Below, piece after piece: positions 27,125 to 51,111 of a stretch of 64,000 bases of DNA (position 1 is the first letter of the stretch; the number at the start of each line of letters is the position of its first letter). The DNA comes from Candidatus Latescibacterota bacterium (GTDB taxonomy: Bacteria > Latescibacterota > UBA2968), in the NCBI GenBank assembly GCA_965198115.1, contig OZ240241.1:3264001-3328000 (forward strand), in the 5' to 3' direction. Position numbers and translations under genes: made by a program. A model generated the notes under the pieces. It was not told where the DNA came from. It made no database searches and was given only the letters and a program-made list of their open reading frames with translations.

Positions 27125-27143
27125 GGAAAATAGGAGAGCGACC

Positions 27144-27366: not shown

Positions 27367-28311
27367 TTGAATTGCCTCGTTACGGGTGGTGCAGGCTTCA
27401 TCGGTCATAACCTCGTTCGGAATCTGCTCGACAGAGGTCACGCGGTACGCGTGCTCGACAACTATGCCACGGGCAAACGCAAGAACCTCGATCCCTATCT
27501 AAACAACATCGACTTTGTCGAAGGAGATCTCAGAGACTTCGACGTCGTCCGTGAGTCCGCTCGCGATATGGAAGTGATCTTCCATCAGGGTGCGCTCGCA
27601 TCTGTTCCCCGGTCGATCAAAGACCCCATCACTTCCAGCCAGGTCAACATCAACGGGACGCTTCACGTACTCGAAGCTGCGCGCCACCACGACGTGCGCA
27701 GAGTCGTTTACGCGTCATCCTCCTCCGTCTATGGCCACAATCCCAAGCTACCCAAACACGAAGGGATGGTCCCTGCCCCCGTTTCACCTTACGCGGTCAG
27801 CAAACTGGCCGGTGAGCAATACTGTAGGGTCTTCGCGCAGATTTACCACCTCGAGACCGTCGCCCTCCGCTACTTCAACGTCTTCGGACCCGGCCAGGAC
27901 CTCCACTCGCCTTACGCGGCCGTGATGCCGCTGTTCGCGGCAGGCTTCCTGAACGGGACACCCATCACCGTCAACGGCGACGGTGAACAGTCCCGCGACT
28001 TCACGTTCATCGACAACGTCGTTCAGGCTAATCTCTGTGCGGCAACAGCCCGCGAAGCCTCCGGGGGCGCCTTCAACGTCGCTTGTGGCCAGCGTACGAC
28101 GCTCAACCAGGTCCTCGACCACCTCCGCACGATGACCGAGGTCGATACCGAAGTCGTCTACGGTCCCGATCGTCCCGGCGACGTGAAGCATTCGCTCGCC
28201 GACATCGACCGGGCAAAAACCGTCCTCAGCTACACGCCGTCCGTTCCTCTCGAAGCCGGCCTCCGCTCGACCGTCGAATACTACCGATCCCTCGTCGGCA
28301 ACGCCGGCTGA
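27367..28311 (+). CDS. NDP-sugar 4-epimerase (WbpP/TviC-like SDR)
   Basis: TGGAGFIG, SVPRS, SSSSVYG, YAVSK, RYFNVFGP. Confidence 0.9.
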   Translation: MNCLVTGGAGFIGHNLVRNLLDRGHAVRVLDNYATGKRKNLDPYLNNIDFVEGDLRDFDVVRESARDMEVIFHQGALASVPRSIKDPITSSQVNINGTLHVLEAARHHDVRRVVYASSSSVYGHNPKLPKHEGMVPAPVSPYAVSKLAGEQYCRVFAQIYHLETVALRYFNVFGPGQDLHSPYAAVMPLFAAGFLNGTPITVNGDGEQSRDFTFIDNVVQANLCAATAREASGGAFNVACGQRTTLNQVLDHLRTMTEVDTEVVYGPDRPGDVKHSLADIDRAKTVLSYTPSVPLEAGLRSTVEYYRSLVGNAG

Positions 28312-28528
28312 TTCTCGACTCCATACGGAACCAATCAGTAGGACTGGCCTCCCGGCCAGGAAACCCTGCCGCGAATCACACTCCCCATTTCTTTCGCAGC
28401 CGGGAGACTGTTCCCACCGCATCCTCATCGCCTGTGAAGTGGATTCGTGTTCCCTCGCGTGCTCACAGCAGACAATCTCCGATCCAAATGGGGTTGACCG
28501 GGATAGGGTTCTCACCCACTATCCCGAC

Positions 28529-30037
28529 ATGGCCGCCTCCCACTTGAATCGACGGATGATCCTCATCGGGCTCGATTGCGTCCCACCCGAGTTGCTGTTC
28601 GATCGCTTTCGCGACGACCTGCCGAACATCACTTCCCTCGTCGATCGCGGGCTTTCCGCCCCGCTGAAAAGCACGATTCCTCCCATTACGATTCCGGCGT
28701 GGATGTGCATGATGACCGGCAAGGACCCGGGCACCCTCGGCATCTACGGTCTTCGAAATCGACAGGCCCACGACTATCGACCCCTGGCGGTAGCGAACGC
28801 TCGCCACGTGCTCGAACCCACGATCTGGGATACAGTCGGCGGTGCCGGCGGCCAGGTCATCCTCGTCGGTGTGCCTCAGACCTATCCGCCCCCCAAGATC
28901 AACGGCGTCCTCGTATCGTCGTTCCTCGCCCCCAGCACCGAGTCGATCTTCACGCATCCACCCGAACTGAAAGAGGAAATCGCACGCATTACCCCGGACT
29001 ATATGATCGATGTGCCCGACTTCCGCTCCGACGACAGGGACCGCATCCTTGCCGACATCCACGACATGACCGAGAAGCGGTTTCGATTGTTTCGCCACTT
29101 CCTGTCAACCCGCGACTGGCGGTTCGCGATGCTCGTGGAAATGGGCACCGACCGCATCCACCACGCCTTCTGGCGATTCCTCGACGAGACGCACCGCGAC
29201 CATCAACCCGAATCGCCCTACGCCAACGCAATTCTCGACTACTACCGCGCGATCGATACCGAGGTCGGACAGACGCTCGACCTCATCGACGAGGAAACGA
29301 TCGTCGCCATCGTCTCCGACCACGGCGCTAAACGCATCGACGGCGGCTTCTGCGTCAACGAATGGCTGATCGAACGAGGCGACCTCGTACTGAACCAACG
29401 TCCTCTAACGATCACACCCCTGCAGCTTGACAACATCGACTGGTCGCGCACAAAGGCGTGGGGCGAGGGCGGATACTATGCGCGCATCTTTCTGAACGTC
29501 GAAGACAGGGAACCCGAGGGTCAGATCCCCAAGGTCGACTACGAGCGGACGCGAGATGCAATCGCCGCCGCGATAGAATCCGTTCCAGGACCCGACGGAC
29601 GGACATTGGCGACGATCGCGCATCGGCCCGACCGCATATACCGTCAAGTGCGAGGTCATCCCCCCGACCTCATCGTCCATCTGGACGACCTCTACCTGCG
29701 CTCGATCGGATCGATCGGTCACGGACGTCTTTTCATCGAGGGCAACGACGCCGGGCCCGACGACGCCAATCACGCACAGCACGGCGTCTTCGCCGTCGCG
29801 GGGCCTGGGATAGATCCCAAGAGGATCGACGAAATGGACATACTCGATGTCGCGCCAACGCTATTGGAACAGATGGGGCTCGGGATTCCGGAGGACGTGC
29901 AAGGCCGGAGCGTGATCGCGAAGGTCGCCCACTCGTCGGAGCCCGCGGCCGAAAACGCGGAGGAGACAGAGAGCGTCTACACAGAAGAGGAGCAGCAAGC
30001 GGTCGAGGAACGCCTCAGATCCCTGGGTTACCTTTAG
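28529..30037 (+). CDS. Alkaline phosphatase superfamily / nucleotide pyrophosphatase-like protein
   Basis: IGLDC, STIPPITIPAW, DRIHH, SDHG, DDANH; C-terminal EERLRSLGYL. Confidence 0.85.
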   Translation: MAASHLNRRMILIGLDCVPPELLFDRFRDDLPNITSLVDRGLSAPLKSTIPPITIPAWMCMMTGKDPGTLGIYGLRNRQAHDYRPLAVANARHVLEPTIWDTVGGAGGQVILVGVPQTYPPPKINGVLVSSFLAPSTESIFTHPPELKEEIARITPDYMIDVPDFRSDDRDRILADIHDMTEKRFRLFRHFLSTRDWRFAMLVEMGTDRIHHAFWRFLDETHRDHQPESPYANAILDYYRAIDTEVGQTLDLIDEETIVAIVSDHGAKRIDGGFCVNEWLIERGDLVLNQRPLTITPLQLDNIDWSRTKAWGEGGYYARIFLNVEDREPEGQIPKVDYERTRDAIAAAIESVPGPDGRTLATIAHRPDRIYRQVRGHPPDLIVHLDDLYLRSIGSIGHGRLFIEGNDAGPDDANHAQHGVFAVAGPGIDPKRIDEMDILDVAPTLLEQMGLGIPEDVQGRSVIAKVAHSSEPAAENAEETESVYTEEEQQAVEERLRSLGYL

Positions 30038-30069
30038 TCATCTGTCTGCGAATCATCACGGAGGATCCG

Positions 30070-30810
30070 ATGCCGAACGAGATACACAACACCGCCGAAA
30101 TGGGCTCGGGCACGACCGTCGGGCACTATGCTGTCGTATCCGAGCACGTCATCATCGGAAACGGCTGCCGGATCGGCCATCACGCCATCATCCATCCCAA
30201 CACCGTTGTGGGCGACGGCTGCGTCATCGACGACGGGGCCGTCATCGGCAAGCCACCGCTTCGGTCTGCCGCAATGGACATCGAGCCCGGCAGCGACCTA
30301 CCGGGGCTCGAGATTGCAAACGGAACCGTCGTCGGCACGGGGGCGATTCTGTTTCGGGGATCGACGATCGGAAGCGGTAGCCTCGTCGCCGACCTGGCGT
30401 CGGTTCGGGAGAACACGAGAATCGGCGAAAGAACGATAATCGGTCGCGCGTCGGCGATCGAAAACCAGGTCACGATCGGCGATCGATGCAAGGTCGAAGC
30501 AGGGTGTTTTATCTGCGCCTTCAGCGTGATCGAAGACGACTGCTTCGTCGCCCCCGAGGTCACCTTCACGAACGACAATTTCCTCGGCCGAACGGAAGAG
30601 CGGAAGAAGCACTATGCCGGACCAACACTTCGCCGCGGGGCCAGGGTCGGCGCCAACGCTACGATCCTACCCGGGAAGGTCCTCGAGCCCGATGCCCTTG
30701 CTGCCGCCGGCGCGGTCGTGACACGAAATGTTCCTAAACGCGAGATTTTCAAGGGAGTTCCGGCAAAACCCCACGGCTCTGTACCCCCCGAACAATTAGT
30801 CGGTGAGTAG
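30070..30810 (+). CDS. Hexapeptide-repeat sugar N-acyltransferase (WbpD-like)
   Basis: Left-handed beta-helix repeats, FTND, IGANATILPG-like, GVPAK. Confidence 0.88.
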   Translation: MPNEIHNTAEMGSGTTVGHYAVVSEHVIIGNGCRIGHHAIIHPNTVVGDGCVIDDGAVIGKPPLRSAAMDIEPGSDLPGLEIANGTVVGTGAILFRGSTIGSGSLVADLASVRENTRIGERTIIGRASAIENQVTIGDRCKVEAGCFICAFSVIEDDCFVAPEVTFTNDNFLGRTEERKKHYAGPTLRRGARVGANATILPGKVLEPDALAAAGAVVTRNVPKREIFKGVPAKPHGSVPPEQLVGE

Positions 30811-30902
30811 GAACCTTTTTCCCTGCACCACGACGCCCTGAAAGGCGCCTCTCCAATCCATTATTGACTTAAGTATAACTAAAACAATCATTTATATATA
30901 TT

Positions 30903-30935
30903 AGGCTCGTTCCCTCGAACGCAGGGGAACGGGCC
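30903..30935 (+). terminator. Stem-loop after module 1
   Basis: GGCTCGTTCCC / GGGAACGGGCC. Confidence 0.5.
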
Positions 30936-30943
30936 GATTTTCG

Positions 30944-31001
30944 TGGTATCGCGATTGCACTACGGCGTGAGGGCTAAGGCGATCAAGAGATCCGCCGATA
31001 C
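30944..31001 (+). promoter_or_regulatory. Tandem sigma54 and sigma28 promoters
   Basis: TGGTATCGCGATTGCA (GG-N10-GC, 30944-30959); TAAG-N15-GCCGATAC (30975-31001); AT-rich tract upstream. Confidence 0.7.
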
Positions 31002-31080
31002 TGAAAAGAGACGGGATTCCGACGGAACGGCACCACCCCGCCCGGCCGTTCTCATCTTCGAGTAGCCGAAACTTGCTGGA

Positions 31081-32079
31081 ATGTATCCATTCCCGCCGCC
31101 AGAGGCGTGGAAGGAGGTCGCTGTGGTGTTTAGGAAGACACTGCGTCTTCTGGGGCTGATTCTTTTCGCCTACATCCTCACACAGGTGGATGTCGGGAAG
31201 GTCGTGGCGGTCTATCGCGACAGTGACCTCGTCCCTCTGGCTCTCGTGGTCTTGCTCTTCTACCCGACGATCTGGTTCAGGTCGCTACGCTGGCAGCGTC
31301 TTCTCCCCAAGTCCGGCGCCAGGCTCACTCAGAAACAGCTCTTCCGGTCTTACTTGGCCAGCTACTTCGCTGGTACCATCACACCGGGCCGGGTCGGAGA
31401 GCTCAGCCGCGTCGGCTATCTCCGCGCGCACGACGTTCCGATATGGGAATCGGCATTCAGCACGGTCGCAGACCGAGCGCTCGATATCGCCGCCCTCGGG
31501 CTTCTCGCGATGATGGGAGCGATCGTTCTCCTCGACGGCTGGAGCCCCTGGGTCCTCACCTTCGGAACGGCCATCGGCTGTGTGACAATCGCCCTGACGT
31601 GGCGACGAGGGATCGAAAGGGTGCCCGCCCTCATTCGACGACTGCTGCCGCAAAGATGGGGGGAGCGTCTTCACGACCCGGCCAACGCGCTCGTCCAAGG
31701 ACTCGGAAACAACCGCGCCATCGTAGGATCCGCCGTCGGCTGGACAGCCCTCAGCTGGGGGCTTGTCTGCATACAGGTCCTGTTGATGGCCGGCGCCCTC
31801 CACATCGAGGCGGACGCCGCACAGCTCGTCGGCGCCTACAGCCTGGCTGCGGTCGTCGGAGCATTGCCGATCACTGTCGCCGGCGTGGGCACGAGAGATG
31901 CGGCGCTCGTCATCACGTTCGGGTTGGCCGGCCTGCCGGCCGAAACCGCGATCGCGTTCTCATCGGGCGTTCTGCTCCTCTACGTCTTTCAGGGAATCCT
32001 CTGTATGCCCTTCTGGCTGCACGTTCCCGTCAAAAGGACTGACACGCCCGTGATGGCTCGGGTGGCAACAGAGGCATGA
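31081..32079 (+). CDS. Lysylphosphatidylglycerol synthase TM / UPF0104 flippase-like protein
   Basis: RSLRW, TPGRVGE..R, DR..D, LPITVAGVGTRD. Confidence 0.85.
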   Translation: MYPFPPPEAWKEVAVVFRKTLRLLGLILFAYILTQVDVGKVVAVYRDSDLVPLALVVLLFYPTIWFRSLRWQRLLPKSGARLTQKQLFRSYLASYFAGTITPGRVGELSRVGYLRAHDVPIWESAFSTVADRALDIAALGLLAMMGAIVLLDGWSPWVLTFGTAIGCVTIALTWRRGIERVPALIRRLLPQRWGERLHDPANALVQGLGNNRAIVGSAVGWTALSWGLVCIQVLLMAGALHIEADAAQLVGAYSLAAVVGALPITVAGVGTRDAALVITFGLAGLPAETAIAFSSGVLLLYVFQGILCMPFWLHVPVKRTDTPVMARVATEA

Positions 32080-32223
32080 CGAAGCTGAATTTATGTATCG
32101 AGCGCCCGGGAATGGCCAACTGCAGGCAGATTCTCCCCGTCCGATATAGAGAATGGGAGTGGAGCCTGATCATTTTCGATGTAAGCCGTAGAACTTTGCA
32201 CCGGCATCGGAGGAGTCCCTGAA

Positions 32224-33671
32224 ATGAAGATTCTCGTCCTCAACCCCGCCAGTACCGCGACAAAGAACGTCATCCGTGACGTGCTCTACGGGTGCTGGTG
32301 CAAGGGCAAGCGCATGGCGGAGCGACCGTCCCCCCGTTCGCCCTGCTCGAGATCGCGACCATCCTGCAGAACGACGAGCACGACGTCGAGTTTCTCGATG
32401 CGCAGGCCGAGCAGCTCCCGTTCGAGATCGTAGAGCGCAAGGTCACCGACCGCGATGCTGTCATCGTCTCCACATCGACCATGACCTTCACCGAGGATGC
32501 GAACACGCTCCTCGCCCTCAAAGCCGTGAACGAGAACCTGACGACCGTGATGTTCGGGTCGCACCCGTCCTTCATGCCGACCTATTCGCTCGCGCACGAC
32601 GGCCCCGACATCATCGTCCGTCACGAGCCCGAATTCATCATCCGGGACCTGTTCCGCACCCTCCGCAAGGGCGGCGACGACTGGAAAACGACCAACGGCA
32701 TCGGTTTCCGCCAGAATGGCGAGCACATCATCAACCCGGATTATCCGTTTATCGATCTCGATGAGCTTCCCTATCCCGACGTCACACTTCTGCCGCAGGG
32801 TATCGACTACTACAATCCGCTAGTCCGCCGCATGCCCTACATCACCACAACGACGTCCAAGGGATGTCCCGCCAAGTGCACGTTTTGCACGACCCCCTAC
32901 TTCGACGGGATGAAAGTCCGGTTCCAGAGCGCCGACTACGTGATCGGCGAAATCGAGCACTTCCTCGCGCACGGTTTCCGCGAAGTCTACTTCCGCGACG
33001 ACACATTCTTCGTGTGGAAAAAACGAGATATCAAACTCTGCGAGGAGATCGTCAACCGGGGTCTCGACGTCACGTGGATCGCCAACGCCCGCGTCAGCAT
33101 GATCGACAAGGAGATGATGCAACGGGCGAAGGATGCCGGATGCCACACGATCAAGTTCGGCATCGAGTCTGGCGTTCAGGAGATTTTAGACCGAATGCGT
33201 AAGGGCTACACGATCGACCAGGCCTACGAGGTCTTCGAGTGGGTCCACGACGTCGGCATCCACGCCCACGCGCACGTCATGCTCGGCAATCCGGGCGACT
33301 CGCACGAGACGATCGAGCGCACCATCGCGTTTGTGAAGGAGCTCAACCCCGGCACGGCCACCTTCGGGCTCTGCACACCCTACCCCGGCACGCCCTTGTT
33401 CGATGAGGTAGCAGAGATGCATCCCGAGATCAAGGACGGGACGCAGAGCGACCTGTCAAAGCTGCACACCGAGGGCCTCTTCAACGAGCACTACACCTCA
33501 CTCAAGAAGGACGAGCTCGAAGAATACGTCCAGAAGGCCTACCGGGAATTCTACTTGCGCCCCGGCTACGTCGTCGAAACCGCCGTAAATCAGCTCCGCG
33601 GTATCGATGACATCAAGCGATTGAGCATCGCGGCGTCGAACGTCGTCGACTTTGCGTTGCGAGGAGAATGA
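32224..33671 (+). CDS. B12-binding radical SAM protein (frameshift near 32315)
   Basis: N-terminal MKILVLNP; B12-binding region; KGCPAKCTFC, FRDDTF, FGIESG, TPYPGT. Confidence 0.88.
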
Positions 33672-34621
33672 GCATGTCTCGCCCCTGGTCTCTGAGCGTC
33701 ATCATTCCCGCACTCAACGAAGCCGATACGATCGGTGGGATCGTGCGTGAGATCCGCAGGCTCGACGAAGCCGACGAGATTCTCGTCATCGACGACGGCT
33801 CTACTGACGGCACTGCCGACATCGCCGAACGGGCTGGCGCGTCTGTCATACGCCATCCCTACAACATCGGAAACGGCGCCGCCGTCAAAACCGGCATCCG
33901 CGAAGCTACGGGCGACGTCCTTCTGTTCATGGACGGCGACGGCCAGCACGACCCCACCGACATTCCTCGCCTGCTCGACAGGATGAACGACTACGACATG
34001 GTCGTGGGCGCTCGCACGAAGGATGCCAAGGTGTCGGCGTTCCGCTCTCTCGGAAACTGGGGTCTCATCAAGGTCGCCGAATACCTGTCGGGTCACAGCA
34101 TCCCTGACTTGACCTCTGGTTTCCGCGCCTTCCATCGCAACAAGATCCTGCGATTCGTGCACCTGCTGCCCAACCGCTACAGCTACCCGACGACCAGCAT
34201 CATGGCCTTCCTGCACGCGGGCCACACGATTCACTTCGAGCCGCTCAGCTCGATCCGCAAGAGACAGGCGGGGCAAAGCAACATCCGGCCGTTCAAAGAC
34301 GGCTTCCGGTTCATCAACATCATCCTGCGCATCATCATGATGTTCGCGCCACAGAAGATCTTCATGCCTGCGAGCTCGGCTCTCTTGATCACGGGTGGCG
34401 GGCTGCTCAGCTACAACCTGTTCTACCAGCACAACATCCACGACGCCTCCATCATCGTCATCACAGTTGGCACATTCACCTTTTTCTTCGGTCTCCTTGC
34501 CGACCAGATCGCCCACATCCGACGTGAGCTTGGACGTTTCACGCTCATGGATCTGGCCGCTCACCACAGCCATACAAGCGAACCATCCAGTCCAGAAGAC
34601 ATTCGGTCGATCGTCTCGTAG
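33668..34621 (+). CDS. GT2 glycosyltransferase (DPM1-like, C-terminal TM helices)
   Basis: IIPALNE, IDDGSTD, MDGDGQH, DLTSGFR. Confidence 0.92.
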   Translation: MSMSRPWSLSVIIPALNEADTIGGIVREIRRLDEADEILVIDDGSTDGTADIAERAGASVIRHPYNIGNGAAVKTGIREATGDVLLFMDGDGQHDPTDIPRLLDRMNDYDMVVGARTKDAKVSAFRSLGNWGLIKVAEYLSGHSIPDLTSGFRAFHRNKILRFVHLLPNRYSYPTTSIMAFLHAGHTIHFEPLSSIRKRQAGQSNIRPFKDGFRFINIILRIIMMFAPQKIFMPASSALLITGGGLLSYNLFYQHNIHDASIIVITVGTFTFFFGLLADQIAHIRRELGRFTLMDLAAHHSHTSEPSSPEDIRSIVS

Positions 34622-34658: not shown

Positions 34659-36432
34659 ATGAACCTCCTCGGTCTCTCCATCTGTCACGACGCTCACGTT
34701 GCGGTCGTTCGCGACGGAAAGCTCGTGGCGGCGATCGGCGAAGAACGGCTCAACCGCGTCAAGATGTACTATGGGTTTCCCTTCCTCGCGATCGAGGAGG
34801 CGCTCAGAATCTCGGGGTTGACCGGCAACGAGGTCGATGCCGTCTGCATCGGGTCCACCTCGACGAAGTATGTCCCAAAGTGGTTGATGGACCTCTACCT
34901 GGACCCGGACCACCTGCACTTCGACGGAAGCAACCATTACACGGTCCCCGAAAGACTTCGCTACCTCCAGGGCTTCCTTGGGGCAAGGTTCGCTCCCGAA
35001 CCCACGACCAACGAGGCCAGGCTCAGAAACGTCCTCGCTGACTACGGTATCGACGCACCGATGTTCTTCTACGATCACCATCACGCCCACTGCGCATCCT
35101 CTTACTTCACGTCCGATGCGGAGAAGGCCCTTTCCCTCTCGATCGACGGCGGTGGTGATGGTCGATACGCTACAGCATGCATACGAAAACGGAATCGGCA
35201 GATGCCTGTCGTCATCTCCGGGTGAAGGTCGACGCCCGGAGTATTCGCCCGCCGACGTCTACTCCTTCGTGACGAAACACCTCGGCTTCAAACGCGTTCA
35301 GCACGAAGGGAAGGTGACTGGATTGGCCGCACACGGCGACCCAGATCGGCTCTACGCACACTTCGAAAAGCTGACCTACCTCGAAACGGAGTCACGAACG
35401 TTCAGGTCCGCGATTCCCTACGACCGTTTTAGAACGAAATTCGCGAGAACCATCGCACTCGGAACGCCCTACGACACGGGCCTGTTGGAATATTTCCGCC
35501 GCGAGTTCGACGGCGAGTCAAGAGAAGACATCGCCGCCGCACTGCAAAAGCGGTGCGAAGACCTCGCAAGGGACTACGTCACCCTTCATCTGGAGGCGTC
35601 GCCATCCAGAAAGATCCTTCTCTCCGGGGGCCTCTTTGCCAACGTCCAGATCAACCAGATTGTCTCCGAGATCGATGGTGTGGACGAGATTTACGTGCAT
35701 CCCTGCATGGGCGACGGAGGCCTCGCAGCTGGCGCCTGTTTCCTCCACTACGAGCGATCGCAACGCAAGCTGGGGCGTGTCTGGGTCGGGGACCGAATCG
35801 ACGACGTCTATCTGGGCCCGGACTACAGTGAGACCCAGGTCGAGCGCGCCCTCGCGGCAAGCGGGCTTCGATATTTCAAGAGTAAGAGTCCGAGCGGTGA
35901 TATGGCGACCCTGTTCTCTAAACGAAGAGTCGTGGGCCATTTCTCGGGCAGAATGGAATACGGGCCGAGGGCCCTCGGGAATCGGTCGCTGCTCTACGCG
36001 CCCGACGACCCGGCCGTGAACGCCCAGCTCAACCACCGTCTCCACCGAACGGAGTTCATGCCTTTCGCCCCAATGTGCCTCGCCGAGTGTGCGCCTGACC
36101 TCTTCGAGGCATTCCACGCGGGTCGAACCGCAGCTCAGTTCATGACGACGACGTTCGAGATTCGACCGGAATGGCGTCATCGGCTAGCCGGTGTCTGTCA
36201 CATCGATCAGACAGCACGTCCTCAAACCATCCGGGCCGATCAGAACCCACGCGTGCACGGTATCCTCGAGGCCTACCGCCGAATCACCGGGACGCCCGCC
36301 CTCATCAACACATCGTTCAACATTCACGGCGAACCCATCGTCTGCACGCCCGAGGATGCGATTCGGTCGTTCAAAGCCGACGCGTGCGACGTGCTCGTGC
36401 TAAATGATTTCATCTGCGAGAAGCCGTCTTGA
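34659..36432 (+). CDS. Carbamoyltransferase, NodU/CmcH family (frameshift near 35180)
   Basis: HDA, EERLNRVK, HHHAH, DGGGD, EGKVTGLA, EYGPRALGNRS, NTSFNIHGEPIV. Confidence 0.9.
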
Positions 36433-37676
36433 GCGAGGCCCTCCCCGCCCGACCACCCGAGACCGTCCCGGGTCAACGGCCTCGACCCCATCTCCTGTGT
36501 CTCCCTGCGGACTCCGTGGACGCGCTCGAAACGCTGGGGGTTGCCTCCTTCATCTGGCGTCACTACGCGCCCAGAGCCTACTTCTCGAAGATTATATTCG
36601 CCCTTCTCGGGGACCACGCATCGGAGCGCGGCCTCGACCCCAGCACGTCGATCCTCGTTTTCCGACGTCGATGGGGAGCGGGTCGGTTCTCACGCGCGTT
36701 CTTCTACGCCATACGTGTTCCGCTCTTCACGGCCTACCTCGTTCAGCTCATCCGTCGCGAACAGATCGACGTGGTTCGCGCGCGATCGGCCGGATACAAC
36801 GCCCTGGCCGGCCTCCTCGCCGCGAAACTGACGGGCACCCGCTGCGCCGTCTCCCTGCACGCACCCTACGCTGTCGATCGCGAATACTGGCCACGCGGTT
36901 TTCGCCGCTGGGAAGAGGCCTGCATCGAGCGGATCGTGCTGACTCTCGCGGATCGTGTCTACTGCGTCGGCAATGCGTTGCGGAACTATGCGATCTCCGC
37001 TGGAGTCCCGCCGGAACGGGCCCAGGTCCTGTTCAATCGCGTCGACATCGCCAAGTTCGCGAACGTCCACCCGAACGATGCATCACGCATCTGGTCGGAA
37101 TTCCGCGTCGCAGAAACAGATCGCATACTCATCACGGTAGGCAGGTTCGTCCCATCCAAAGACCCGTTGACCCTGTTGGAAGGGTTCAGAGACCTCTACG
37201 CCGACGACCCGGGCTACAAACTCGTCATGGTTGGCGACGGGCCACTGCGGGGTCAGGTGGACGCCTACGTGGAGAAACACGGCCTGACCCAGTCGGTGAA
37301 GTGCGTAGGAAACGTTTGCAACGATCTGCTCCCCGCTTACCTGCACGCCGCGGACGTGTTCGTCTTCCCGACTCACTTCGAAGGCTTCGGCATTGTCCTC
37401 GCAGAGGCTCAGGCCGCCGGAATCCCCATCGTGACGACACGGATTCCGGGCACATCCGACATCGTGTCCGACGACAACGCCTGGCTCGTCCCGGTAGGAG
37501 ATCCCCAGGCCCTGGCAGCGGCCGTCCGAACGGTCTTCGTGGACGCCGCAGCGGCCGCTCGCAAGACCGATTCCGGACGCAGAAACGTGGGCCGCTTCGA
37601 CGAGCGGGTGATTCTCTCGCGTGAAGAAGCCCTCTACGACGAATTGCTCGCCTCACCCACGGGGAAACGGGCGTGA
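36429..37676 (+). CDS. GT4 glycosyltransferase
   Basis: VGR...KD, VGDGPLR, EGFGIVLAEA. Confidence 0.9.
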   Translation: MSEALPARPPETVPGQRPRPHLLCLPADSVDALETLGVASFIWRHYAPRAYFSKIIFALLGDHASERGLDPSTSILVFRRRWGAGRFSRAFFYAIRVPLFTAYLVQLIRREQIDVVRARSAGYNALAGLLAAKLTGTRCAVSLHAPYAVDREYWPRGFRRWEEACIERIVLTLADRVYCVGNALRNYAISAGVPPERAQVLFNRVDIAKFANVHPNDASRIWSEFRVAETDRILITVGRFVPSKDPLTLLEGFRDLYADDPGYKLVMVGDGPLRGQVDAYVEKHGLTQSVKCVGNVCNDLLPAYLHAADVFVFPTHFEGFGIVLAEAQAAGIPIVTTRIPGTSDIVSDDNAWLVPVGDPQALAAAVRTVFVDAAAAARKTDSGRRNVGRFDERVILSREEALYDELLASPTGKRA

Positions 37677-41700: not shown

Positions 41701-41869
41701 CACAGCGTGCGCACCCCGGCTGGAGCGGGTGAGTGAATTGACGGGAAATCAGCTCCGCGTGGCTTGTGTAAGGGTTCATGACGCCCAGACGTCTTCGGAA
41801 ACCCCATCGCGAGAGCCCAGCCGGCCCTGCCTGGCCTGGGCTCTCAGCTTTTTGTGGGACGACTCATAG
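38787..41869 (+). pseudogene. B12-binding radical SAM gene interrupted by ISL3 copy 4
   Basis: RGCPYQCSFC and FGLESGNEEVLKK before the IS; NGKRISKD...FIFGLP...FYPGT resumes after it. Confidence 0.9.
39759..41178 (-). mobile_element. ISL3 copy 4 (transposase 39828-41105)
   Basis: Same IRs; flanks TGAAAAAG / TGAAAAAAAG fit an 8-bp TSD with a homopolymer length difference. Confidence 0.95.
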
Positions 41870-42233: not shown

Positions 42234-43420
42234 ATGCGAGTACTGATTACAGGCGTTGACGGCTATCTCGGCTGGAGTCTGGCCGTCCATCTGGCCAACG
42301 CAGGTCATACGATCGGTGGAATCGACACAGGGATGCGCAGGGAGTGGGTCGCGGAAATGGGCTCACAGAGTGCGACACCCATCGGCTCGATGAAGGAACG
42401 CTCTGCGGCCTTCCGTGAGCACTTTGGCGAAGATCTGGTCTACGTAGATGGCGATCTCCGGAACTACGACACGACGTGTGACCTGCTCGCCTCCTTCCGG
42501 CCCGACACGATCGTCCACCTTGGTGAGATGCCATCGGCACCCTACAGCATGGTCGACGTCCATCACGCGGTCTTCACGCAGACGAACAACATCGTCGGCA
42601 CACTCAATCTCCTTTACGCGATGAAGGACCACACACCCGAGGCCCATCTCCTTAAGCTTGGCACGATGGGCGAATACGGCACACCCAAGCTCGATATTCC
42701 CGAGGGCTTCTTCGAGGTCGAGTACCGGGGGAAAAAGGACGTTCTCCCCTTCCCCAGGCAGGCGGGCAGTTGGTATCACCAAAGCAAGGTACACGACACG
42801 AACAACATCATGATGGCTTGTAAGTTCTGGGGCCTCCGGTCCACGGACATTATGCAGGGTGTCGTGTATGGGACACGCATCGCCGCTATGAATGACGACG
42901 AGCAGATGCTGACCGATACGATTTCGATCAGTCTTTCGGCACCGCCATCAACCGATTCTGTGCCCAGTCGGTGGTCGACGCGCCGATGACACTTTACGGC
43001 AAGGGAAAGCAGAAGAGGGGCTTCCTCCCCCTCTGCGACTCGATGCAGTGCCTGACCCTGGCTACTGAGAATCCTCCCGAGCCTGGTGAATACCGGGTCT
43101 TCAATCAGTTCGAGGAAGTCTATGACATCACGGGGCTCGCGACGACGGTACGTGAGGTCGCCAATGAGTTCGGCATCGAAACGAAGATCAACCAGTTCGA
43201 GAACCCGAGAAAAGAGCTCGAAGAGCACGATTACAACCCGGATCATCAGAAGCTGTTCGACCTCGGATACAAACCGACGCGTGACATGAGGTCCGAGCTG
43301 CGTACGGTGTTCCAGGATCTCTTGCGGTATCGGGATCGCATCGAAGAGGTCAGGGACTCGGTCTTCCCGGATATCCGCTGGGATGGCACGAGGCGGCGTT
43401 CGAAGATCATCGGTGAGGTC
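42234..43420 (+). CDS. sqdB: UDP-sulfoquinovose synthase (frameshift near 42915; 3' end uncertain, possibly fused to the next domain)
   Basis: GVDGYLGW, PSAPYSM, KLGTMGEYGTP, YHQSKVHD, TDIMQGVVYG, GEYRVFNQF, ENPRKE. Confidence 0.9.
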
Positions 43421-43519: not shown

Positions 43520-44334
43520 GCGCCCCGGAATGGCTGGGCAGACGAGGCGTCTACGCTGGCATCACGGGCGGCGGCCTCGGGAATCACGTCCCCGGCTACT
43601 CGTCCTACAACGTGCGCATCAGGACGGAGATCCTCGAGGACTTCCTCAAAGAGCTGCCCAAGGATGCGTCGATTCTCGACGTCGGATGCAGCAACGCCCC
43701 CCTCTACCCTTTCATCCGGGAGTGGGGATTCAACGGCAAATACATAGGCGCCGACCTACTCGTCAGGCAGCTAAAGCAGGCCAAAGAAAGAGGGGCCTCA
43801 CCCGTCAACGTGAACGCCATCAATCTGCCGTTCCCGAGCCAGAGCTTCGACCTGGTCATCTGCACGGAGATGTTCGTTCATCTGCTCGACCGGGACGTTC
43901 AGCGCGACGTGCTTCGCGAGATCGACCGGGTCCTCAAGCCGGGTGGGACCATCACCCTCAGCCTCACGAACGCTCATGCTTTGACCGTTCGCCGCCACTT
44001 GGAGAAGGCCGTCGGCCGGATCTACGAGACGCAGCCCTACTGCACTTATTTCTCGTGGGACGACATCGAGAACTTGCTTTCCGACGCGTCTGACGGTCTG
44101 AAGGTCGAGCGATACCGCGCGGTCAAGTACTACGATATGGTCCCCTCGTGGTTCGGAAAACTGCGAGGAATCTTCAAACATCCTGCGGTGATGTACGCTG
44201 CAGATCGACTGTTCGGAATCCTGCCAGTTACGAACCGGTTCGGGGGCATCATCCAGCTCCTAATTCGGAAGAACGAAGCCTCTACCGTCAAACGGGTCGA
44301 GGCGAACGACCGGGAACTGGTCTATGCGAAGTAG
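43520..44334 (+). CDS. Class I SAM-dependent methyltransferase (start uncertain)
   Basis: ILDVGCS, NLPFPSQSFDLV, RVLKPGG. Confidence 0.85.
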
Positions 44335-45501
44335 GAGCAGCATCCGGGTTCTCCACATGGGAAACCTGGGTAACAATGCCTATCGTGAAGTGAAGTTCCT
44401 GCGACGCCGGGGCATCGAAGCGGATCTACTGGTCTTTTCCGGTGAGCTGGAAGGCAATACCCACCCCAGGCACGAGGACCTTCAGAACTACCGCGGCTTG
44501 CCCGATTGGGTCAAAGTCGAACACGAGCTCTGGGGCCGGCGTCCTGATCCCAAGACAAGACCAGTCGATTGGTTGGAGTGGAGAGCACAGCTGCCGGAGA
44601 GGGTTCGTCGATTCCTGGGGGGATATGATATCGTCCAGGCCTATTGCACGACGTCGATCTGGGTCAGGCGATTCATGCCAGAGGACGGACCGGCCCTCAT
44701 CACCTTCAGTACGGGCAGCGACCTGCGTGAACTGGCAACTCTGGGGCGTAGGCGACGAGCTCGTCGCCTACGACAGGCTTATCGATACGCCGACCTCAAA
44801 CTCTCAACAACCTCGACCAGATAGACAGCTGGGAACGGTTGGGTTTCGGAGACCCTGTCTTCATACCCAACCCTTACGATCTGGAGAACGTCTCCCCGTC
44901 CGAACGTCAGGACCACGACCGCCACGAGCTTCTCCTGTTCCATCCCACCCGGCTGGACTGGACTTACTCAGGCGAAGACCGAAGCTCCGGAAAGGCCAAC
45001 GACAGGCTGATTCGAGCATTCCGTCGCTTCCTCGACGATGGGCATAAAGCGCGTCTGCTTCTTCTTGAGCGAGGCGCGGACGTGCGGGCGACACACGAAC
45101 TCGTTAAGTCCCTCGGGCTGGCACAGTTCACCCTCTGGGAGTCGGAACTCAAGAAGAAACAGCTGGTCGACTACCTCAATGCGGCAGACATCGTCGCCGA
45201 CCAGTTCACGCTGGGCGCCTTCGGCGGGACGGCTCTGGAAGCCATGGCCTGTGCAAAGCCTCTCCTGACGCACCTCAAGTCGAGTCGCGCCCTGGAGTGC
45301 TATGGCGATCTACCACCCATTATGAATGTGGCCACCGAAGATGAGATCTACACAGCCCTGGTCGCCCTGCGATCACCCGCCGAGCGGAGCAAGCTCGGTC
45401 GCCGGGCCAGAGCCTGGATCGAAAAGCATCACGACTGGCGCGGTGTAACAGACACGCTGATCCGACTTTATGAGTCGACGCTGAACGGTACGGGTAGCTG
45501 A
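44324..45501 (+). CDS. GT4-like glycosyltransferase (frameshift near 44810)
   Basis: HMGNLGNNAY, GSDLRE, KANDRLI, DQFTLGAFGGTALEAMAC. Confidence 0.82.
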
Positions 45502-45626: not shown

Positions 45627-46673
45627 ATGTTAACTGTTCAGAGAGTCTTCCCCCGGGACGAGTCCGAATGGGATTGTCATTTCGAAGGCCGATACCCCGC
45701 CGGGCTCGGCCAGTCGCATTTCTACGCACGTCTCTTCGGCCAGATCGACGGCTCTGAATCCGTCTTTCTTCAATGCGATCACGGGGGCACCGCTGTCGGA
45801 TGGCTCCTCCTGATGGAAAAACGTCTTTCCGATCGGTCGCAGATGCTCGACTGGATCGACGGCCCTGTGATGATGACGGAGGACGCACCTGAGGAAGTCG
45901 GTCTTGCCTTACTAGACTGGATTTCCCGCTACGCACGCGACCGACGGATCGCCAGGGCCTACTGTCACGGCCTCCCGATAGACCGTCGCTCTGACAGCAC
46001 TCTTGACGGGGCCTTTGCCTCGCGCGGATATGACCGACAGCCCTGGGCAACTTTCATCGTCGACCTGTGTACCGACGAGGAAGCCCTGTGGAAAGGTCTG
46101 AATCGAGCCGTACGGAAAGCCGTCAACAAGTGTTCGAGAGAGGGTCTGTCGGTCGTTCGAGCCGGCAGTCCAGACCAGTTCGCCAACCTCTTCTATCCTG
46201 CCCTGTCTGCGGGCAAAGCTGCCGCCGGGCTGACGACGCGTCCGCGTGAAGTCTACGATGTCGTCTTCGAGGAAGACCGGAAGTCCCGTTACGCATACTA
46301 CGTGGCAGTCGATGCCGATCACGTCCCTCTCGGCACCCTGGGTGTTCACACTTTCGGGGGCACAGCCACGGAAATCGCCTCAAGCGTCGTCCCAACCACC
46401 CGGCTGCCGGTCCAGGATCTGCTCCACTGGCACGCGCTCAAGCTGGCCAAAAAGGACGGATGCCATCAGTTCGACCTCGCCGGCGTGCATCCGAACCCGC
46501 TCCAGAATAGCAAGGAGGCCGGCATTCGTCGCTTCAAGGCAAAATGGGGAGGGACCTGCGTCGACTATGGCAGATACGGTCGTCACTTCGCCTGGTTGCC
46601 CCGAATCAAGCAATGGGCGAGAAAACAGAGCGCCTTGTCGCTCGTCACACGCGCGGTAAGCGTTGGCCGATGA
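45627..46673 (+). CDS. FemAB/FemX-like GNAT acyltransferase
   Basis: ATFIVDL..DEEALW...RKAVNK, LLHW, FDLAG, GIRRFKAKWGG. Confidence 0.8.
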   Translation: MLTVQRVFPRDESEWDCHFEGRYPAGLGQSHFYARLFGQIDGSESVFLQCDHGGTAVGWLLLMEKRLSDRSQMLDWIDGPVMMTEDAPEEVGLALLDWISRYARDRRIARAYCHGLPIDRRSDSTLDGAFASRGYDRQPWATFIVDLCTDEEALWKGLNRAVRKAVNKCSREGLSVVRAGSPDQFANLFYPALSAGKAAAGLTTRPREVYDVVFEEDRKSRYAYYVAVDADHVPLGTLGVHTFGGTATEIASSVVPTTRLPVQDLLHWHALKLAKKDGCHQFDLAGVHPNPLQNSKEAGIRRFKAKWGGTCVDYGRYGRHFAWLPRIKQWARKQSALSLVTRAVSVGR

Positions 46674-48123
46674 TCAAGTCCTACTTCAAGAACGCCGGGA
46701 TCCTCGGTCTGATCGAAGTGGCCCTGAGGATGAAGGGTCTGATCATTCTGCCCATCCTTACGCGGCACTTCGGCGCAGTGAACTACGGCGTCTGGGCACA
46801 GGTCGGTGTGCTGACCGGCCTACTGGCGACCTTCGTTACGTTCAAGACAGATGGTGCGCTGGTTCGGTACCTTCCCGGGGGCGACCAACAGACGCGTCGG
46901 GAGGGTCTGTCCACGCTCGTCGTCTGCCTGTTCCTCAGCATCTGCGGATGCTGGGTGGTCATCCATACCGCACGCGAGGAGTTGGCTTCGATCCTGCTCG
47001 GATCACCCGAAGAGGGAAGATTCATCTCGCTTGCGGGTTTCGTGGTCCTCAACAGCGTGCTCTACACGATCGTCGGCAAATGGTATCGGATCATCGACAA
47101 TGCTGGCATGGTCGGTTGGATCAGCGCTATTCAGGCTGTCACCGGGCTGGCTGCAGTTGCAGTCGTTGCTCTCGCCGACGCGGGTGTATTTGAGCTCATC
47201 GCTATAACGACGGCTGTCGAGTTCGTGTTCGCCGTCGCACTGCTCTGGAAGATCCTCTGGGAACTCGGCTTTGTACGGCCTCGATTCGACGTGATGATTC
47301 GGTATCTGAAATTCGGTCTTCCGTTTCTCCCAGCGAGCTATGCCACGTGGATCGTTCACGCTTCGGACCGTCTTCTGATCCAACATTTCGGATCGATCGC
47401 CGATGTCGGCGTCTACAGCGTCGCTTACAGTGTGGGCTGCTTGTTCGTCCCCCTATTCACGAAGCCATTCCGCACGATGTATACGGCGAGGGCGAGTGAA
47501 CTCTACGACACCGGACGACTCGAGGACCTCCATCGCCTGTTCCACCACTCCAGTCGCACGGCGCTGGGGCTGGTCATCCGTCGATCATCGGGTTCTCCGC
47601 ACTCGCCAACCCCTTCTTTCATATCCTGACCACACCGGAATTCGAGACGGGCGCCCCACTCGCCGCGATCGTGGCGACAGGCTATGTCATCCACTTCTAC
47701 GCCGGCTACTTCGCCGTCTCGCTCAGTCTGGTACACCGGACGCATTGGGCAACGATCGGCACGATCGTCGCCGCCGTCGCAAACGTTGGCCTGAATCTGC
47801 TACTCATCCCTCAGTACGGATTGGTTGGCGCGGCCACCTCGACCGTCGTCGCATTCAGCTTGAACACGTTGGTCTGCGGCTACCAGGCACAGAAGTATAT
47901 CCGGCTGCAGCTGGACGGGCTGTTCATCCTCAAGTCGCTCCTCGCCTCGATCGCCATGTTTCCCGTGCTGAGCGTTCTCCCGTCCGAGTCGATTGCTCAC
48001 CTCATCCTGAATGTGATCGCCGGTCTCTGTGTCTATGCGTGTGCGATGCTGGCCCTCCGGGTCTTCAGCGACGATGAGAAGCGTCAACTCGCTCGGTGGT
48101 TCCAGCCCCGAAGGGCAGCCTGA
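46670..48123 (+). CDS. Wzx-type oligosaccharide flippase (frameshift near 47580)
   Basis: LPILTR....YG, FGLP, SDRLLI, VGVYSVAY, LNLLLIPQYGLVGAA. Confidence 0.88.
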
Positions 48124-48869
48124 TGGAAACCACACTGACCACCTCGACTTCGGCTGCTTTCCGGGCTCGGCCCAGAGAAAGCACGGTAACGGGTCTGGTG
48201 GGCTACGGACCCGGGGCCGAGCCGGAGACCTGGCTGACGCAAGACGCTGACATCCACGTGCTTGAACCCGGACAGGACGAACTCTGCCTTCTAGGCTCTC
48301 ACGATCTGGAGTTCTGTCCAGAGGCCTTGAGCCGCGAGCTCGAGAACGTAACCGCCACGACATTGGCGTTCCCGATCCTCCTCGAAAACGTGTTCGCCGA
48401 TCAGGATCCGACCAGCTATGTCGCCCGAATGGGAGCCGCCTTCCCCGATGCCAGTCAGGTCGTGGTTGTCGCGGCACCGGACACAGCAGCCGAGGTGCTT
48501 TATCGAAACTACGTACGGCTGGGAGGTAGCCTTCACATCAGAGAGCTCTTCTATAGGCCGGGGTCGCCCGGCGTCGATGTGTTCGCATACCCTTTCTTGG
48601 TCGAGGCGATCACGCGTAATCCCGAACCCACTCGGGAGACCTGCGTCATTCGCGTCGATCACCAAAAAGGCCGTCTGGCGGCAGTAGAAGCACTTGGTTT
48701 GCCCACGTCTGCTTTGCTCACGACGCATAGGCCGCGTTACGCTCTCTCCTATGGTGCGACCCACCGATGTCGGTGGATCAACCAGGTGACAGCCACCCCG
48801 CACTCTGATGCACCATCGACGGGACCGATCCAGGCAAGAAGCACCGCAGGTCCGTCGCAATCGGCTTGA
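48123..48869 (+). CDS. Degenerate sulfotransferase-like domain, probably the N-terminal half of the next ORF
   Basis: Shares LY..Y...GGSL, RP.SP and NQ...T..SDAP blocks with 48882-50045. Confidence 0.6.
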   Translation: METTLTTSTSAAFRARPRESTVTGLVGYGPGAEPETWLTQDADIHVLEPGQDELCLLGSHDLEFCPEALSRELENVTATTLAFPILLENVFADQDPTSYVARMGAAFPDASQVVVVAAPDTAAEVLYRNYVRLGGSLHIRELFYRPGSPGVDVFAYPFLVEAITRNPEPTRETCVIRVDHQKGRLAAVEALGLPTSALLTTHRPRYALSYGATHRCRWINQVTATPHSDAPSTGPIQARSTAGPSQSA

Positions 48870-48881
48870 GGACGGCGCTTC

Positions 48882-50045
48882 GTGGACCGCCCAAAGAAGT
48901 GGTTCGCCCGAAGACTGGTGAAGCGGACGATCTTGCGCAGTGCAAGAAAGACCGATGACGATCTCACGATTGCCCAGGATCTTGTGCAGCGCAGCCAACA
49001 CCCACGGATGCCGTCGTCAGCGAGCAGTCGCTCATCGGAGCCGCTTCTCGCCGACGCACTCCACATCGGCTACCAGAAAACGGCGACCACTTGGCTGCAG
49101 ACCGACATCATCCCTGCCCTGCCTGACGTCGCCCCCCTCGCCAAACCCGCACTCATCGATCGGGGCTACCGTGACGTGCTCGACCGCATTTGCTCTGACC
49201 GGGATGGCACCTTCGACGCGGGGGCCCTGCGGGACCGAATCGGGCGCATACACGAATCCAACGGGCTGACCGACCACCGGAAGCGTCTGATCTGCTACGA
49301 GCACCTGTGCGGAGAACTCTTCTCAGGATGGGACACGATCAGAGTACTCGACAGGGCGCGGAATGTGTTCGGCCCAACGAAGATCATCGCCACGATTCGC
49401 GAACAGAAAAGCATGGTCGAGTCTCTCTATCGATATTACCTGCAATGCGGGGGAAGCCTCGATCTCGCCGACTTCCTGTTCAGACCCTCCTCACCCGCTG
49501 TCAGTAACAGCGGCGTACCCGGCTGGCAGATCAAGTTCAGTTACGACCGAGTGATGACGTACTGCCAGAGTCTTTTCGGAGAGGAGAATGTGCGTTTCCT
49601 GCCATTCGAGTGGATTCGCAAGGATACTTGCAGGTTCCTCAAAGCCTATTTTGGCTTCTTCGGTGTCGATGTGCCTGCGTCGCTGGCAGACCGCGATCAG
49701 GCACGAAACGAAGCCATGTCGTTCTATGGGTCATCCGCGTTGAGGGTGCTGAATCAGTACCGATCGACGAAATACTCCGACGCTCCTTTTGCGCGGAATC
49801 TTTCGCCCTTCTTCATCAGCCTCCAGACAAATGTGCTGGCCCCCGTGGATCGAGCGTGTTTCGGGAGCCTCGGACGGGCGAAGAGGTTCGTGAATCAGGC
49901 CGTTCCAGACAGACCATGGATTCCCGCGGTCTGGCAAGAATACGCATCCTTCGCAGAAGCATTCGACGCATTTTTCGCCGAATCCAACCGCAATCTGGTA
50001 GGCTACACCGGCCAGCTGCTACACGACTTCGGTTACGCAACCTGA
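48882..50045 (+). CDS. PAPS-dependent sulfotransferase
   Basis: 5'-PSB loop HIGYQKTATTWLQ; IREQ..MVESLY; FGEENV.FLPFE. Confidence 0.85.
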   Translation: MDRPKKWFARRLVKRTILRSARKTDDDLTIAQDLVQRSQHPRMPSSASSRSSEPLLADALHIGYQKTATTWLQTDIIPALPDVAPLAKPALIDRGYRDVLDRICSDRDGTFDAGALRDRIGRIHESNGLTDHRKRLICYEHLCGELFSGWDTIRVLDRARNVFGPTKIIATIREQKSMVESLYRYYLQCGGSLDLADFLFRPSSPAVSNSGVPGWQIKFSYDRVMTYCQSLFGEENVRFLPFEWIRKDTCRFLKAYFGFFGVDVPASLADRDQARNEAMSFYGSSALRVLNQYRSTKYSDAPFARNLSPFFISLQTNVLAPVDRACFGSLGRAKRFVNQAVPDRPWIPAVWQEYASFAEAFDAFFAESNRNLVGYTGQLLHDFGYAT

Positions 50046-50062
50046 GAAAGCGGGAGGAAATC

Positions 50063-51010
50063 GTGTCCATCCGATCAATACTCGTTACGGGCGGATGTGG
50101 GTTCATCGGTTCGAACCTGGCCCCATACCTCATCGATCGAGGCTACGAGGTCTCTGTATTCGACAACTTGTCAATTGGATCGCGCGAGGCGTTGACAGGG
50201 TTGCCCGTTGAGGTCCATACCGGCGACATTCTCGACCGACAGGCAGTGGACTCAGCGATGCGTGAGTGCGACGCCGTGGTCCACCTAGCTGCCCATTCGA
50301 GTGTTGTAGACTCGATCGAGAACCCGATGGTCGACGCGCAGATCAACGTGATGGGCACGTTGAACGTCCTCCAGGCCGCGGTCGCTCATAAAGTACAATC
50401 GTTCGTTCAGGCTTCCTCGAATGCCCCGATCGGAGAACAGCCTCCCCCATCGTCCGAGGACAAAGCGGCGCGCCCTTCAGCTCCCTACGGGGCAAGTAAG
50501 CTTGCCTGCGAAGGCTACTGTTCGGCTTTCCACAAATCCTATGGATTGAAAGCCGTAGCTCTGCGGTTCGCGAATGCTTACGGTCCTCGCTCCACGCACA
50601 AAGCCAGCGCAGTTGCCAAGTTCATTCGACTGATCCTCTCCGGCGAAGGGCTGACGATCTTCGGCGACGGTGGTCAGACCCGCGATTTCGTTCACGTTCA
50701 GGATATCTGTCAGGGCATCCACAAGGCCCTCATCTCCGAACGCGGCGGTGAGCTCTACTGTTTAGGTACGGGCATCGAGACCAGCGTACTTCGGCTGGTC
50801 GATCTGTTCAGAGAAATCAGTGGACTGGACTTCCCAGTGGCTCACGTGCCAGCGCGGGCGGGCGAGATCACACGAAACTACACCGACATCTCGAAGGCGC
50901 GGGCAGAGTTGGGTTTCGAGCCGACGGTCGAGCTCCGAGATGGACTTCGCGCGTGTTTCAACTGGTTCGTCGAGAGCACGGGGCATACTCAGTCCGTGAC
51001 AGCGGGATAG
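50063..51010 (+). CDS. NAD-dependent epimerase (GalE-like)
   Basis: GGAGG RBS; TGGCGFIG, HLAA, YGASK, RFANAYGP, DGGQTRDF. Confidence 0.9.
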   Translation: MSIRSILVTGGCGFIGSNLAPYLIDRGYEVSVFDNLSIGSREALTGLPVEVHTGDILDRQAVDSAMRECDAVVHLAAHSSVVDSIENPMVDAQINVMGTLNVLQAAVAHKVQSFVQASSNAPIGEQPPPSSEDKAARPSAPYGASKLACEGYCSAFHKSYGLKAVALRFANAYGPRSTHKASAVAKFIRLILSGEGLTIFGDGGQTRDFVHVQDICQGIHKALISERGGELYCLGTGIETSVLRLVDLFREISGLDFPVAHVPARAGEITRNYTDISKARAELGFEPTVELRDGLRACFNWFVESTGHTQSVTAG

Positions 51011-51014
51011 ACAT

Positions 51015-51111
51015 TTGGGACGCAAGGATACCACTATTAGTCTCCTGCGAGAGGAAGACGGCATCCATCGACTGCTGGACGTCGGCTGCAGTTTCGGGAG
51101 CTATAATCAAA
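51015..51111 (+). pseudogene. N-terminal fragment of a SAM methyltransferase cut by IS256
   Basis: Translates to ...REEDGIHRLLDVGCSFGSYNQ up to the IS end. Confidence 0.6.

Follow-up and report, generated by a model that had tools for sequence, protein, structure and literature searches.

A decaying, variable glycan locus in a Candidatus Latescibacterota genome carries a proline-type SqdB-like gene and may once have served a C6-sulfonated amino sugar

Introduction

In a 64,000-nucleotide stretch of a Candidatus Latescibacterota genome (contig OZ240241.1; hereafter, the window), a gene for an SqdB-like enzyme lies among genes for glycan assembly and tailoring, which raises the question of what sugar this enzyme made and where it went. 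The portions of three reviews available to us place sulfoquinovose (SQ) in sulfolipid and in archaeal glycans (PMC13436972; PMC8987622; PMC11407970). Our literature search found no C-sulfonated sugar in a bacterial polysaccharide, and no paper on the arginine/proline split of the SqdB family described below; most subscription journals lay outside its coverage, and most matches were judged by their listing. The initial annotation of the window had proposed that SQ itself enters a highly modified surface glycan. In this study, we tentatively propose that a now partly broken and variable cluster built a Wzx-flipped surface glycan, for which the SqdB-like enzyme made a C6-sulfonated nucleotide sugar, most probably UDP-N-acetyl-6-sulfoquinovosamine. 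A C6-sulfonated product is regarded as probable; for the 2-amino or 2-acetamido form, our confidence is a little under even.

Results

A proline stands in place of Arg101 in the SqdB-like enzyme

The window enzyme keeps the catalytic set of its family (Thr, YHxxK, and TMGEY; motifs HLGEMPS, GTMGEY, and YHQSK). Thr145, Tyr182, and Lys186 are retained, as are the His, Met, Glu, and Tyr residues tested in Agl3 of Sulfolobus acidocaldarius (comparison with Table 1 of PMC4388408). At the position of Arg101 of SQD1 and Agl3, it has proline. Agl3 R101A is inactive according to the parts of PMC4388408 that were consulted, in which the primer table fixes the position.

Proline was found at this position in 81 of 82 genome relatives, 12 of 12 viral sequences, all 120 top homologues of the intact relative L116, and all 120 haloarchaeal sequences. 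Arginine was found in 46 of 47 SqdX-linked enzymes, in the four bacterial plasmid records examined, and in the sqdB-GT8 loci of S. meliloti and Palleronia; arginine or lysine occurs in 26 of 29 Thermoproteota. Among 186 sequences, no other column tracks the split, and 20 columns are identical throughout the two types. In a FastTree phylogeny of 88 rows, the two states need 2 changes, compared with a shuffled mean of 22.9. Proline lies at its base and arginine in the sulfolipid and crenarchaeal clades; the root rests on long outgroup branches, with no one-clade test. The identification of the sugar as SQ itself was therefore not supported, since the enzyme has no Arg101 and belongs to a branch of its own.

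The model of L116 has a pLDDT of 94.6 and a TM of 0.94 to SQD1, for an aligned, ligand-free fold. The two halves of the window enzyme match NF041015 at positions 1-224 and 226-383 with 331 and 204 bits, together under the cut-off of 575 bits; L116 and L047 miss it as well (563 and 570). Intact bacterial relatives score 489-570, and a Bathyarchaeia relative scores 630. By manual count on the alignment, position 101 corresponds to G102 of WbpP. We take this site, from the GalE/WbpP literature, to face the 2-substituent of the sugar.

The SqdB-like enzyme of Haloarcula hispanica (P0253), 35% identical to L116, is also of the proline type. The N-glycan of this archaeon carries 6-sulfo-quinovosamine (6-sulfo-QuiN), and DolP-QuiNS was detected, according to the accessible part of PMC9943897. 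Sulfolobales glycans, including those of S. tokodaii, carry QuiS, as stated in the part of PMC7064770 that was seen.

Further proline-type genes were observed in other settings. In the Chloroflexota genome G043, both types are present, and each adjoins a SqdX-like GT4 glycosyltransferase (GT) of its own: at L300/L301, an arginine-type sqdB is followed by canonical SqdX, and a proline-type sqdB lies beside a divergent SqdX-like GT4. The two pairs possibly make two different sulfolipids. Twelve viral contigs (L011-L022) carry proline-type genes, some beside glycosyl- and methyltransferase-like open reading frames (ORFs), suggesting that phages may encode sulfo-sugar glycosylation; a SqdX motif scan of viral contigs found none. 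In a Syntrophaceae genome, two distinct proline-type genes (L039:3399-4565 and 8856-10037) share one nonulosonic-acid-type locus.

Neighborhoods point to a surface glycan

A SqdX profile was built from 40 metagenome GT4s adjoining sqdB, found by a sequence motif; among 116 loci, sqdB lay within 2.5 kb in 49. Held-out SqdX-like proteins (n = 24) scored 431-681 bits. Neither GT4 of the locus is SqdX, because they scored 77 and 17.5 bits; both were rejected as candidates in this comparison. The best ORF in the whole genome (G000; 8.43 Mb, single contig, 100% complete; the window is G000:C1:3264001-3328000) reached 103 bits, and a query with SqdD of S. meliloti gave no match in G000.

Of the 162 SqdB relatives from the genome collection, the best 80 were used for neighborhood counts; many of these loci are incomplete, and the kin among them are not independent. 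The profiles were built from the same neighborhoods, with families mostly named by Pfam and the main GT and DegT clusters named by BLAST and inspection. GT genes were present in 54 loci, Wzx in 25, and any of Wzx, Wzy, Wzc, or Wza in 30. Sulfotransferase genes were found in 10, B12-binding radical SAM (S-adenosylmethionine) genes in 8, a SqdX-like gene in 1, and NodU in none. A short-chain dehydrogenase/reductase (SDR) gene lay within 300 bp of sqdB in 24 loci, and relatives (≥45% identity) of the GalE-like SDR at 50063 directly adjoined sqdB in 11.

The SqdB relatives thus sit mostly in polysaccharide loci, and a surface glycan, as already proposed in the initial annotation, is held to be the destination with high confidence. 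That the enzyme fed synthesis of the sulfolipid SQDG, with its place in a glycan locus incidental, is very improbable and already largely refuted: a few proline-type relatives do adjoin SqdX-like genes, but this complete genome yielded no SqdD and no SqdX, its best ORF scoring 103 bits against a minimum of 431.

Gene content of the locus

Gene identities were assigned by Pfam and NCBIfam family scans of the window proteins (Table 1). The scans supported nearly every gene named initially, except that the second "flippase" is an LPG_synthase_TM/TIGR00374 protein, which leaves a single Wzx. The locus genes are on the plus strand as described, and a minus-strand ISL3 element breaks the run.

Table 1. 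Features of the glycan locus (window coordinates).
Feature	Position	Strand	State and evidence
NDP-sugar 4-epimerase, WbpP/WbgU/TviC-like	27367..28311	+	Intact; part of conserved 5' module
Alkaline-phosphatase (AP)-superfamily (nucleotide pyrophosphatase-type) protein	28529..30037	+	Intact; PF01663 (Phosphodiest) E 2e-40
Hexapeptide-repeat acyltransferase	30070..30810	+	Intact; PF00132; NeuD/PglB family E 9e-29, below cut-off
LPG_synthase_TM flippase-like membrane protein, not Wzx	31081..32079	+	Intact; PF03706 E 4e-40; TIGR00374 over cut-off
B12-binding radical SAM 1	32224..33671	+	Frameshift near 32310
GT2, AglJ/polyprenol-phosphate-sugar-synthase-like	33668..34621	+	Intact; PF00535; TIGR04182 E 4e-38, below cut-off
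NodU/CmcH carbamoyltransferase	34659..36432	+	Frameshift near 35180; PF02543 across two frames; PF16861
GT4 glycosyltransferase a	36429..37676	+	Intact; not SqdX
FkbM-family methyltransferase	37673..38551	+	Intact; TIGR01444 over cut-off
B12-binding radical SAM 2	38787..41869	+	Split by ISL3; N-part to 39758, C-part from ~41180
ISL3 element inside radical SAM 2	39759..41179	-	One of 223 near-full-length genome copies
SqdB/SQD1-like enzyme, proline-type at Arg101 position	42234..43411	+	Frameshift ~42913; NF041015 match
Class-I SAM methyltransferase	43612..44334	+	Start uncertain; PF08241 E 3e-17
GT4 glycosyltransferase b	44324..45501	+	Frameshift near 44800; not SqdX
FemAB-like GNAT acyl/aminoacyl transferase	45627..46673	+	Intact; TIGR03019 E 4e-8; PF13480
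Wzx flippase	46670..48123	+	Frameshift near 47580; PF13440/PF01943
Degenerate sulfotransferase-like ORF	48123..48869	+	In frame with next gene; ends at in-frame TGA
PAPS-type sulfotransferase	49008..50045	+	Open frame; atlas 0.97; weak PDB match E 0.04
GalE-like SDR	50063..51010	+	Family scan; close relatives adjoin SqdB in other loci
Methyltransferase-like stub, 28 codons	51015..51097	+	SAM-motif-like stretch; cut by IS256-like element

The first gene is predicted to encode a UDP-GlcNAc or UDP-GlcNAcA epimerase. The two parts of radical SAM 2 each match B12 radical SAM families, and the two halves of Wzx match the HfsF model and one common homologue. The 3'-phosphoadenosine 5'-phosphosulfate (PAPS)-type sulfotransferase at 49008 had no match of its own in the Pfam or NCBIfam scans; 2 of its 7 homologues carry PF13469/PF00685, a Sulfotransfer_1/3 fold and a 5'-phosphosulfate-binding loop were judged present, and its original assignment is supported. 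The ORF at 48123, absent from the initial annotation, has an atlas value of 0.91 and an E of 1e-7 against the family profile of the downstream sulfotransferase; by our reading, its loop lacks the Lys and the first Thr. It was rejected as the fragment of a third methyltransferase, since it resembles a sulfotransferase. The third methyltransferase is the stub at 51015, which has a SAM-motif-like stretch and no Pfam match. The insertion sequence (IS) that cuts it, an IS256-like element, begins at 51098 and is in turn cut by another ISL3; no matching IS256 flank bearing the lost part was found using one right-end variant.

A Wzx gene, the flippase of a Wzx/Wzy-dependent locus, is present, though frameshifted. 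Elsewhere in G000, there are 2 PF02397 and 16 PF04932 genes, six further NodU-like genes, and genes for Sat, APS (adenosine 5'-phosphosulfate) kinase, and a PAPS-reductase-family protein. No island signal was seen, as the locus matches the genome in GC and GC3, and promoter and terminator scans of the locus were at or below chance.

The locus is a mosaic at a variable site

The related genomes G001 and G002 share the upstream genes and the 5' module, at 55-90% identity, and then continue with other 3' genes. The shared module comprises the epimerase (80% identity to the G001 copy and 68% to the G002 copy), the AP-superfamily protein (73% and 55%), the acyltransferase, radical SAM 1 (90% and 81%, unbroken in both), and GT2, with LPG_TM in G001. 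Neither genome has sqdB at the corresponding site. Both have a GT-C there; queries with these GT-C and FrhB-like genes found none in G000. SqdB-like genes occurred in 6 of the 168 phylum genomes searched, which points to gain by transfer. G010, of the same family, has Wzx, two NodU, B12 radical SAM, GNAT, GT2, LPG_TM, and a distant SqdB-like gene, and its parts come from other lineages (SqdB 41% and NodU 29-34% identity).

The neighborhood search suggested in the initial annotation for sqdB, wzx, nodU, and radical SAM together yielded no conserved module, given the NodU and radical SAM counts above, and the sister genomes carry other genes in the 3' part. The combination was rejected as a unit; judged from these comparisons, the gene mix is best read as a mosaic at a hypervariable site.

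The locus is decaying

Six of the 19 locus genes are clearly broken, or eight when the IS-cut stub and the TGA-ended sulfotransferase-like ORF are counted. SqdB, NodU, Wzx, GT4b, and radical SAM 1 are frameshifted, and radical SAM 2 is split by ISL3. The shifts were placed against intact homologues, except that in GT4b, which was read from the frames. The C-terminal frame of SqdB continues past the usual stop to 43747, running 121 residues beyond the last conserved motif (median 14 and maximum 40 in 59 relatives). Phase variation was rejected because the shifts sit in runs of 2-3 bases, not in long tracts.

As a decay control, 642 genes from 868 kb of G001 were compared with G000, and 508 had orthologues. 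Of these, 54 (~11%) were broken; within 552 kb, there were 53 frameshifts or insertions, together with 8 clean nonsense codons. Breaks per kb numbered 0.130 below 72% identity, 0.166 at 72-80%, and 0.049 at ≥88%. Ribosomal and RNA-polymerase genes had no breaks, and two neighboring sugar genes were broken. The locus was more broken than this background (6/19, p 0.012; 8/19, p 0.0004; 5 frameshifts against 1.9 expected, p 0.047), with p values that overstate the difference because conserved genes are overrepresented in the background set. The pattern fits real decay under relaxed selection, because the break rate falls with conservation and the ribosomal and RNA-polymerase genes are spared.

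The Logan contigs from runs X1 and X2 agree with 26079-39779, 41156-43061, and 43033-51121 without a gap or differing letter and carry the same breaks. Run X3 covers the locus in patches, and none of its listed pieces spans a break. It is improbable that the frameshifts are assembly errors and that the pathway works apart from the IS insertions. A single-contig genome is typical of long reads, and four of the five shifts are one-base losses; X1 and X2, for which no library is recorded, also come from one sample, probably the source of the assembly, and thus lack independence, which counts against our reading. However, the contigs agree with the assembly over the three stretches above, and across the genome some of the breaks are nonsense codons or indels of 2-8 bases, and conserved genes are spared.

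The locus is thus likely inactive, and in this population neither the flippase nor the sulfo-sugar branch probably still works. A working, highly tailored pathway was not supported by this analysis, as SqdB, Wzx, NodU, and both radical SAM genes are broken; the decay and the non-sulfolipid type of SqdB had not been recognized. Because key genes are broken, the locus is a poor experimental target.

In keeping with the placement of G000 in Latescibacterota, which is regarded as most likely, an RpoB from the same genus shares 70% identity with that of a Latescibacterota genome, compared with 53-58% for four other phyla. G000 contains 223 near-full ISL3 and ~142 IS256-like copies, and kin genomes are ~5.5 Mb. 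In the window, the IS burst is seen at 11380, 17311, 18739, 39759, and 51758. Together with the ~11% of broken orthologues, the burst is what characterizes a lineage that has recently become host-restricted or passed through a bottleneck.

Other features of the window and genome

Just past the locus, at 53711-55197, a tRNA-Glu overlaps the end of the gene for a large serine recombinase, an integrative-element junction, and a second recombinase, split, lies at 4666-6731. A membrane-protein-like fragment without a Pfam match (53105-53432, minus strand) is cut by ISL3. Two secreted-type proteins were found, one with four CHRD domains and a C-terminal sorting domain (8792-11251) and one with CARDB repeats and a dockerin-like end (57886-60924). 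Elsewhere, seven long O-antigen-ligase-like (Wzy_C) genes stand in tandem at G000:C1:8189290-8204075, out of 16 genome-wide, and are arrayed in G001 too. Two ORFs of ~1,100 aa (G000:C1:3369365-3370096 and 1429118-1430107) have partial RpoB matches besides the true rpoB and are possibly mobile-element RNA polymerases.

Discussion

In the pathway that we propose, the SqdB-like enzyme of the intact ancestor would turn UDP-GlcNAc and sulfite into UDP-N-acetyl-6-sulfoquinovosamine through C4 oxidation, elimination of the C6 hydroxyl, and sulfite addition, as in SQD1 and Agl3, with the proline at position 101 leaving space for the 2-acetamido group. Sat, APS kinase, and the PAPS-reductase-family protein could supply PAPS and sulfite. 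The last SDR (50063) may epimerize the sulfo-sugar, and the WbpP-like epimerase suggests that the lipid-linked units would contain N-acetylhexosamine-derived sugars. GT2 and the GT4s would transfer the sugars to a polyprenol carrier, and the tailoring enzymes would attach methyl, carbamoyl, acyl, and sulfate groups. Once Wzx had flipped the unit, ligases or polymerases encoded elsewhere would complete the glycan. We infer all of this chemistry.

Known systems resemble the locus in part. SQD1 of Arabidopsis (PDB 1QRR/1I24) has the same SDR fold, with the catalytic Thr and YxxxK, and the N-terminal half of the window enzyme matches it with an E of 1e-68. Agl3, which makes UDP-SQ for the S-layer N-glycan, is likewise an SqdB-family enzyme serving a surface glycan, with the TMGEY motif and an NF041015 match; it differs in needing Arg101, whereas the window enzyme is under the NF041015 cut-off and in a bacterial Wzx context. 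The SqdB-SqdX and SqdB-SqdD pathways differ in their Arg101, branch, and partner genes, as here a frameshifted, proline-type gene lies in a glycan locus. On a haloarchaeal plasmid, genes for LPG_synthase_TM, an AP-family protein, an SqdB-like enzyme, and SDRs are grouped as in the window; the H. hispanica enzyme, however, has a TTTGVY motif, belongs to a different clade, and would serve an archaeal dolichol pathway. By family scans, Wzx/Wzy-dependent O-antigen, capsule, and S-layer glycan loci share the Wzx, GTs, NDP-sugar epimerases, and tailoring enzymes, and a fixed site with content swapped between kin. Unlike them, the locus shows no Wzy, Wzz/Wzc, or initiating transferase and has a GT2/LPG_TM lipid-carrier-type module; of a lipid-carrier glycosylation module of GT2, flippase, and GT-C, the GT-C was in turn not found in G000 with the queries described above.

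Several observations weigh against our proposal. The locus, cut at its 3' end, showed no Wzy, initiating transferase, or GT-C. The proline appears ancestral in the tree and may therefore mark nothing about the substrate. WbpP G102K favors acetylated substrates more, not less, according to the part of bioRxiv 2020.05.26.111013 that was seen, and therefore the pocket argument is not clean. The link to an amino sugar comes from one organism, H. hispanica, whose enzyme is in a different proline-bearing clade; the accessible literature does not establish the link between its gene and the sugar, and a paralogue is possible. Some Chloroflexota pair a proline-type enzyme with SqdX-like genes (L089), and in G044, two SqdX-like genes were found with a single, proline-type SqdB.

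Some of these points would suit a proline-type enzyme that makes ordinary UDP-SQ from UDP-glucose, with SQ entering the surface glycan. The 47-48% identity and close structural match to SQD1, the lack of any column co-varying with the split, the WbpP G102K result, and the SqdX-like neighbors in Chloroflexota are all in its favor. We nevertheless consider it unlikely, as Arg101 is present in both enzymes with shown UDP-SQ activity, its loss inactivates Agl3, arginine originated separately in each of the two groups known to make SQ, and the two types coexist in G043, each with a GT4 of its own. Less likely still is an enzyme that adds no sulfite, acting as a 5,6-dehydratase or with another nucleophile, so that a partner SDR yields a deoxy or otherwise modified sugar and sulfur enters only as sulfate. 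The missing basic residue near the sugar and the SDR neighbors would agree with it, as would the 5,6-dehydratase activity of SQD1 and Agl3 without sulfite, which is described in the accessible part of PMC8987622. Yet H. hispanica combines a proline-type enzyme with a 6-sulfo sugar, and the two types have 20 invariant columns in common.

Beyond this locus, we raise as a speculative possibility that most "UDP-sulfoquinovose synthases" of uncultured bacteria, many archaea, and some phages belong to the proline type and produce UDP-N-acetyl-sulfoquinovosamine for surface glycans as the ancestral job of the family, and that glucose-using Arg101 enzymes arose twice, for sulfolipid and for crenarchaeal N-glycans. 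If so, a one-residue marker would split a very large, misnamed enzyme family and predict its substrate. Bacterial polysaccharides would hold an undescribed C-sulfonated amino sugar, which would be a new sugar for bacterial glycobiology and a pool in the organosulfur cycle, and sulfolipid synthesis would gain an origin story.

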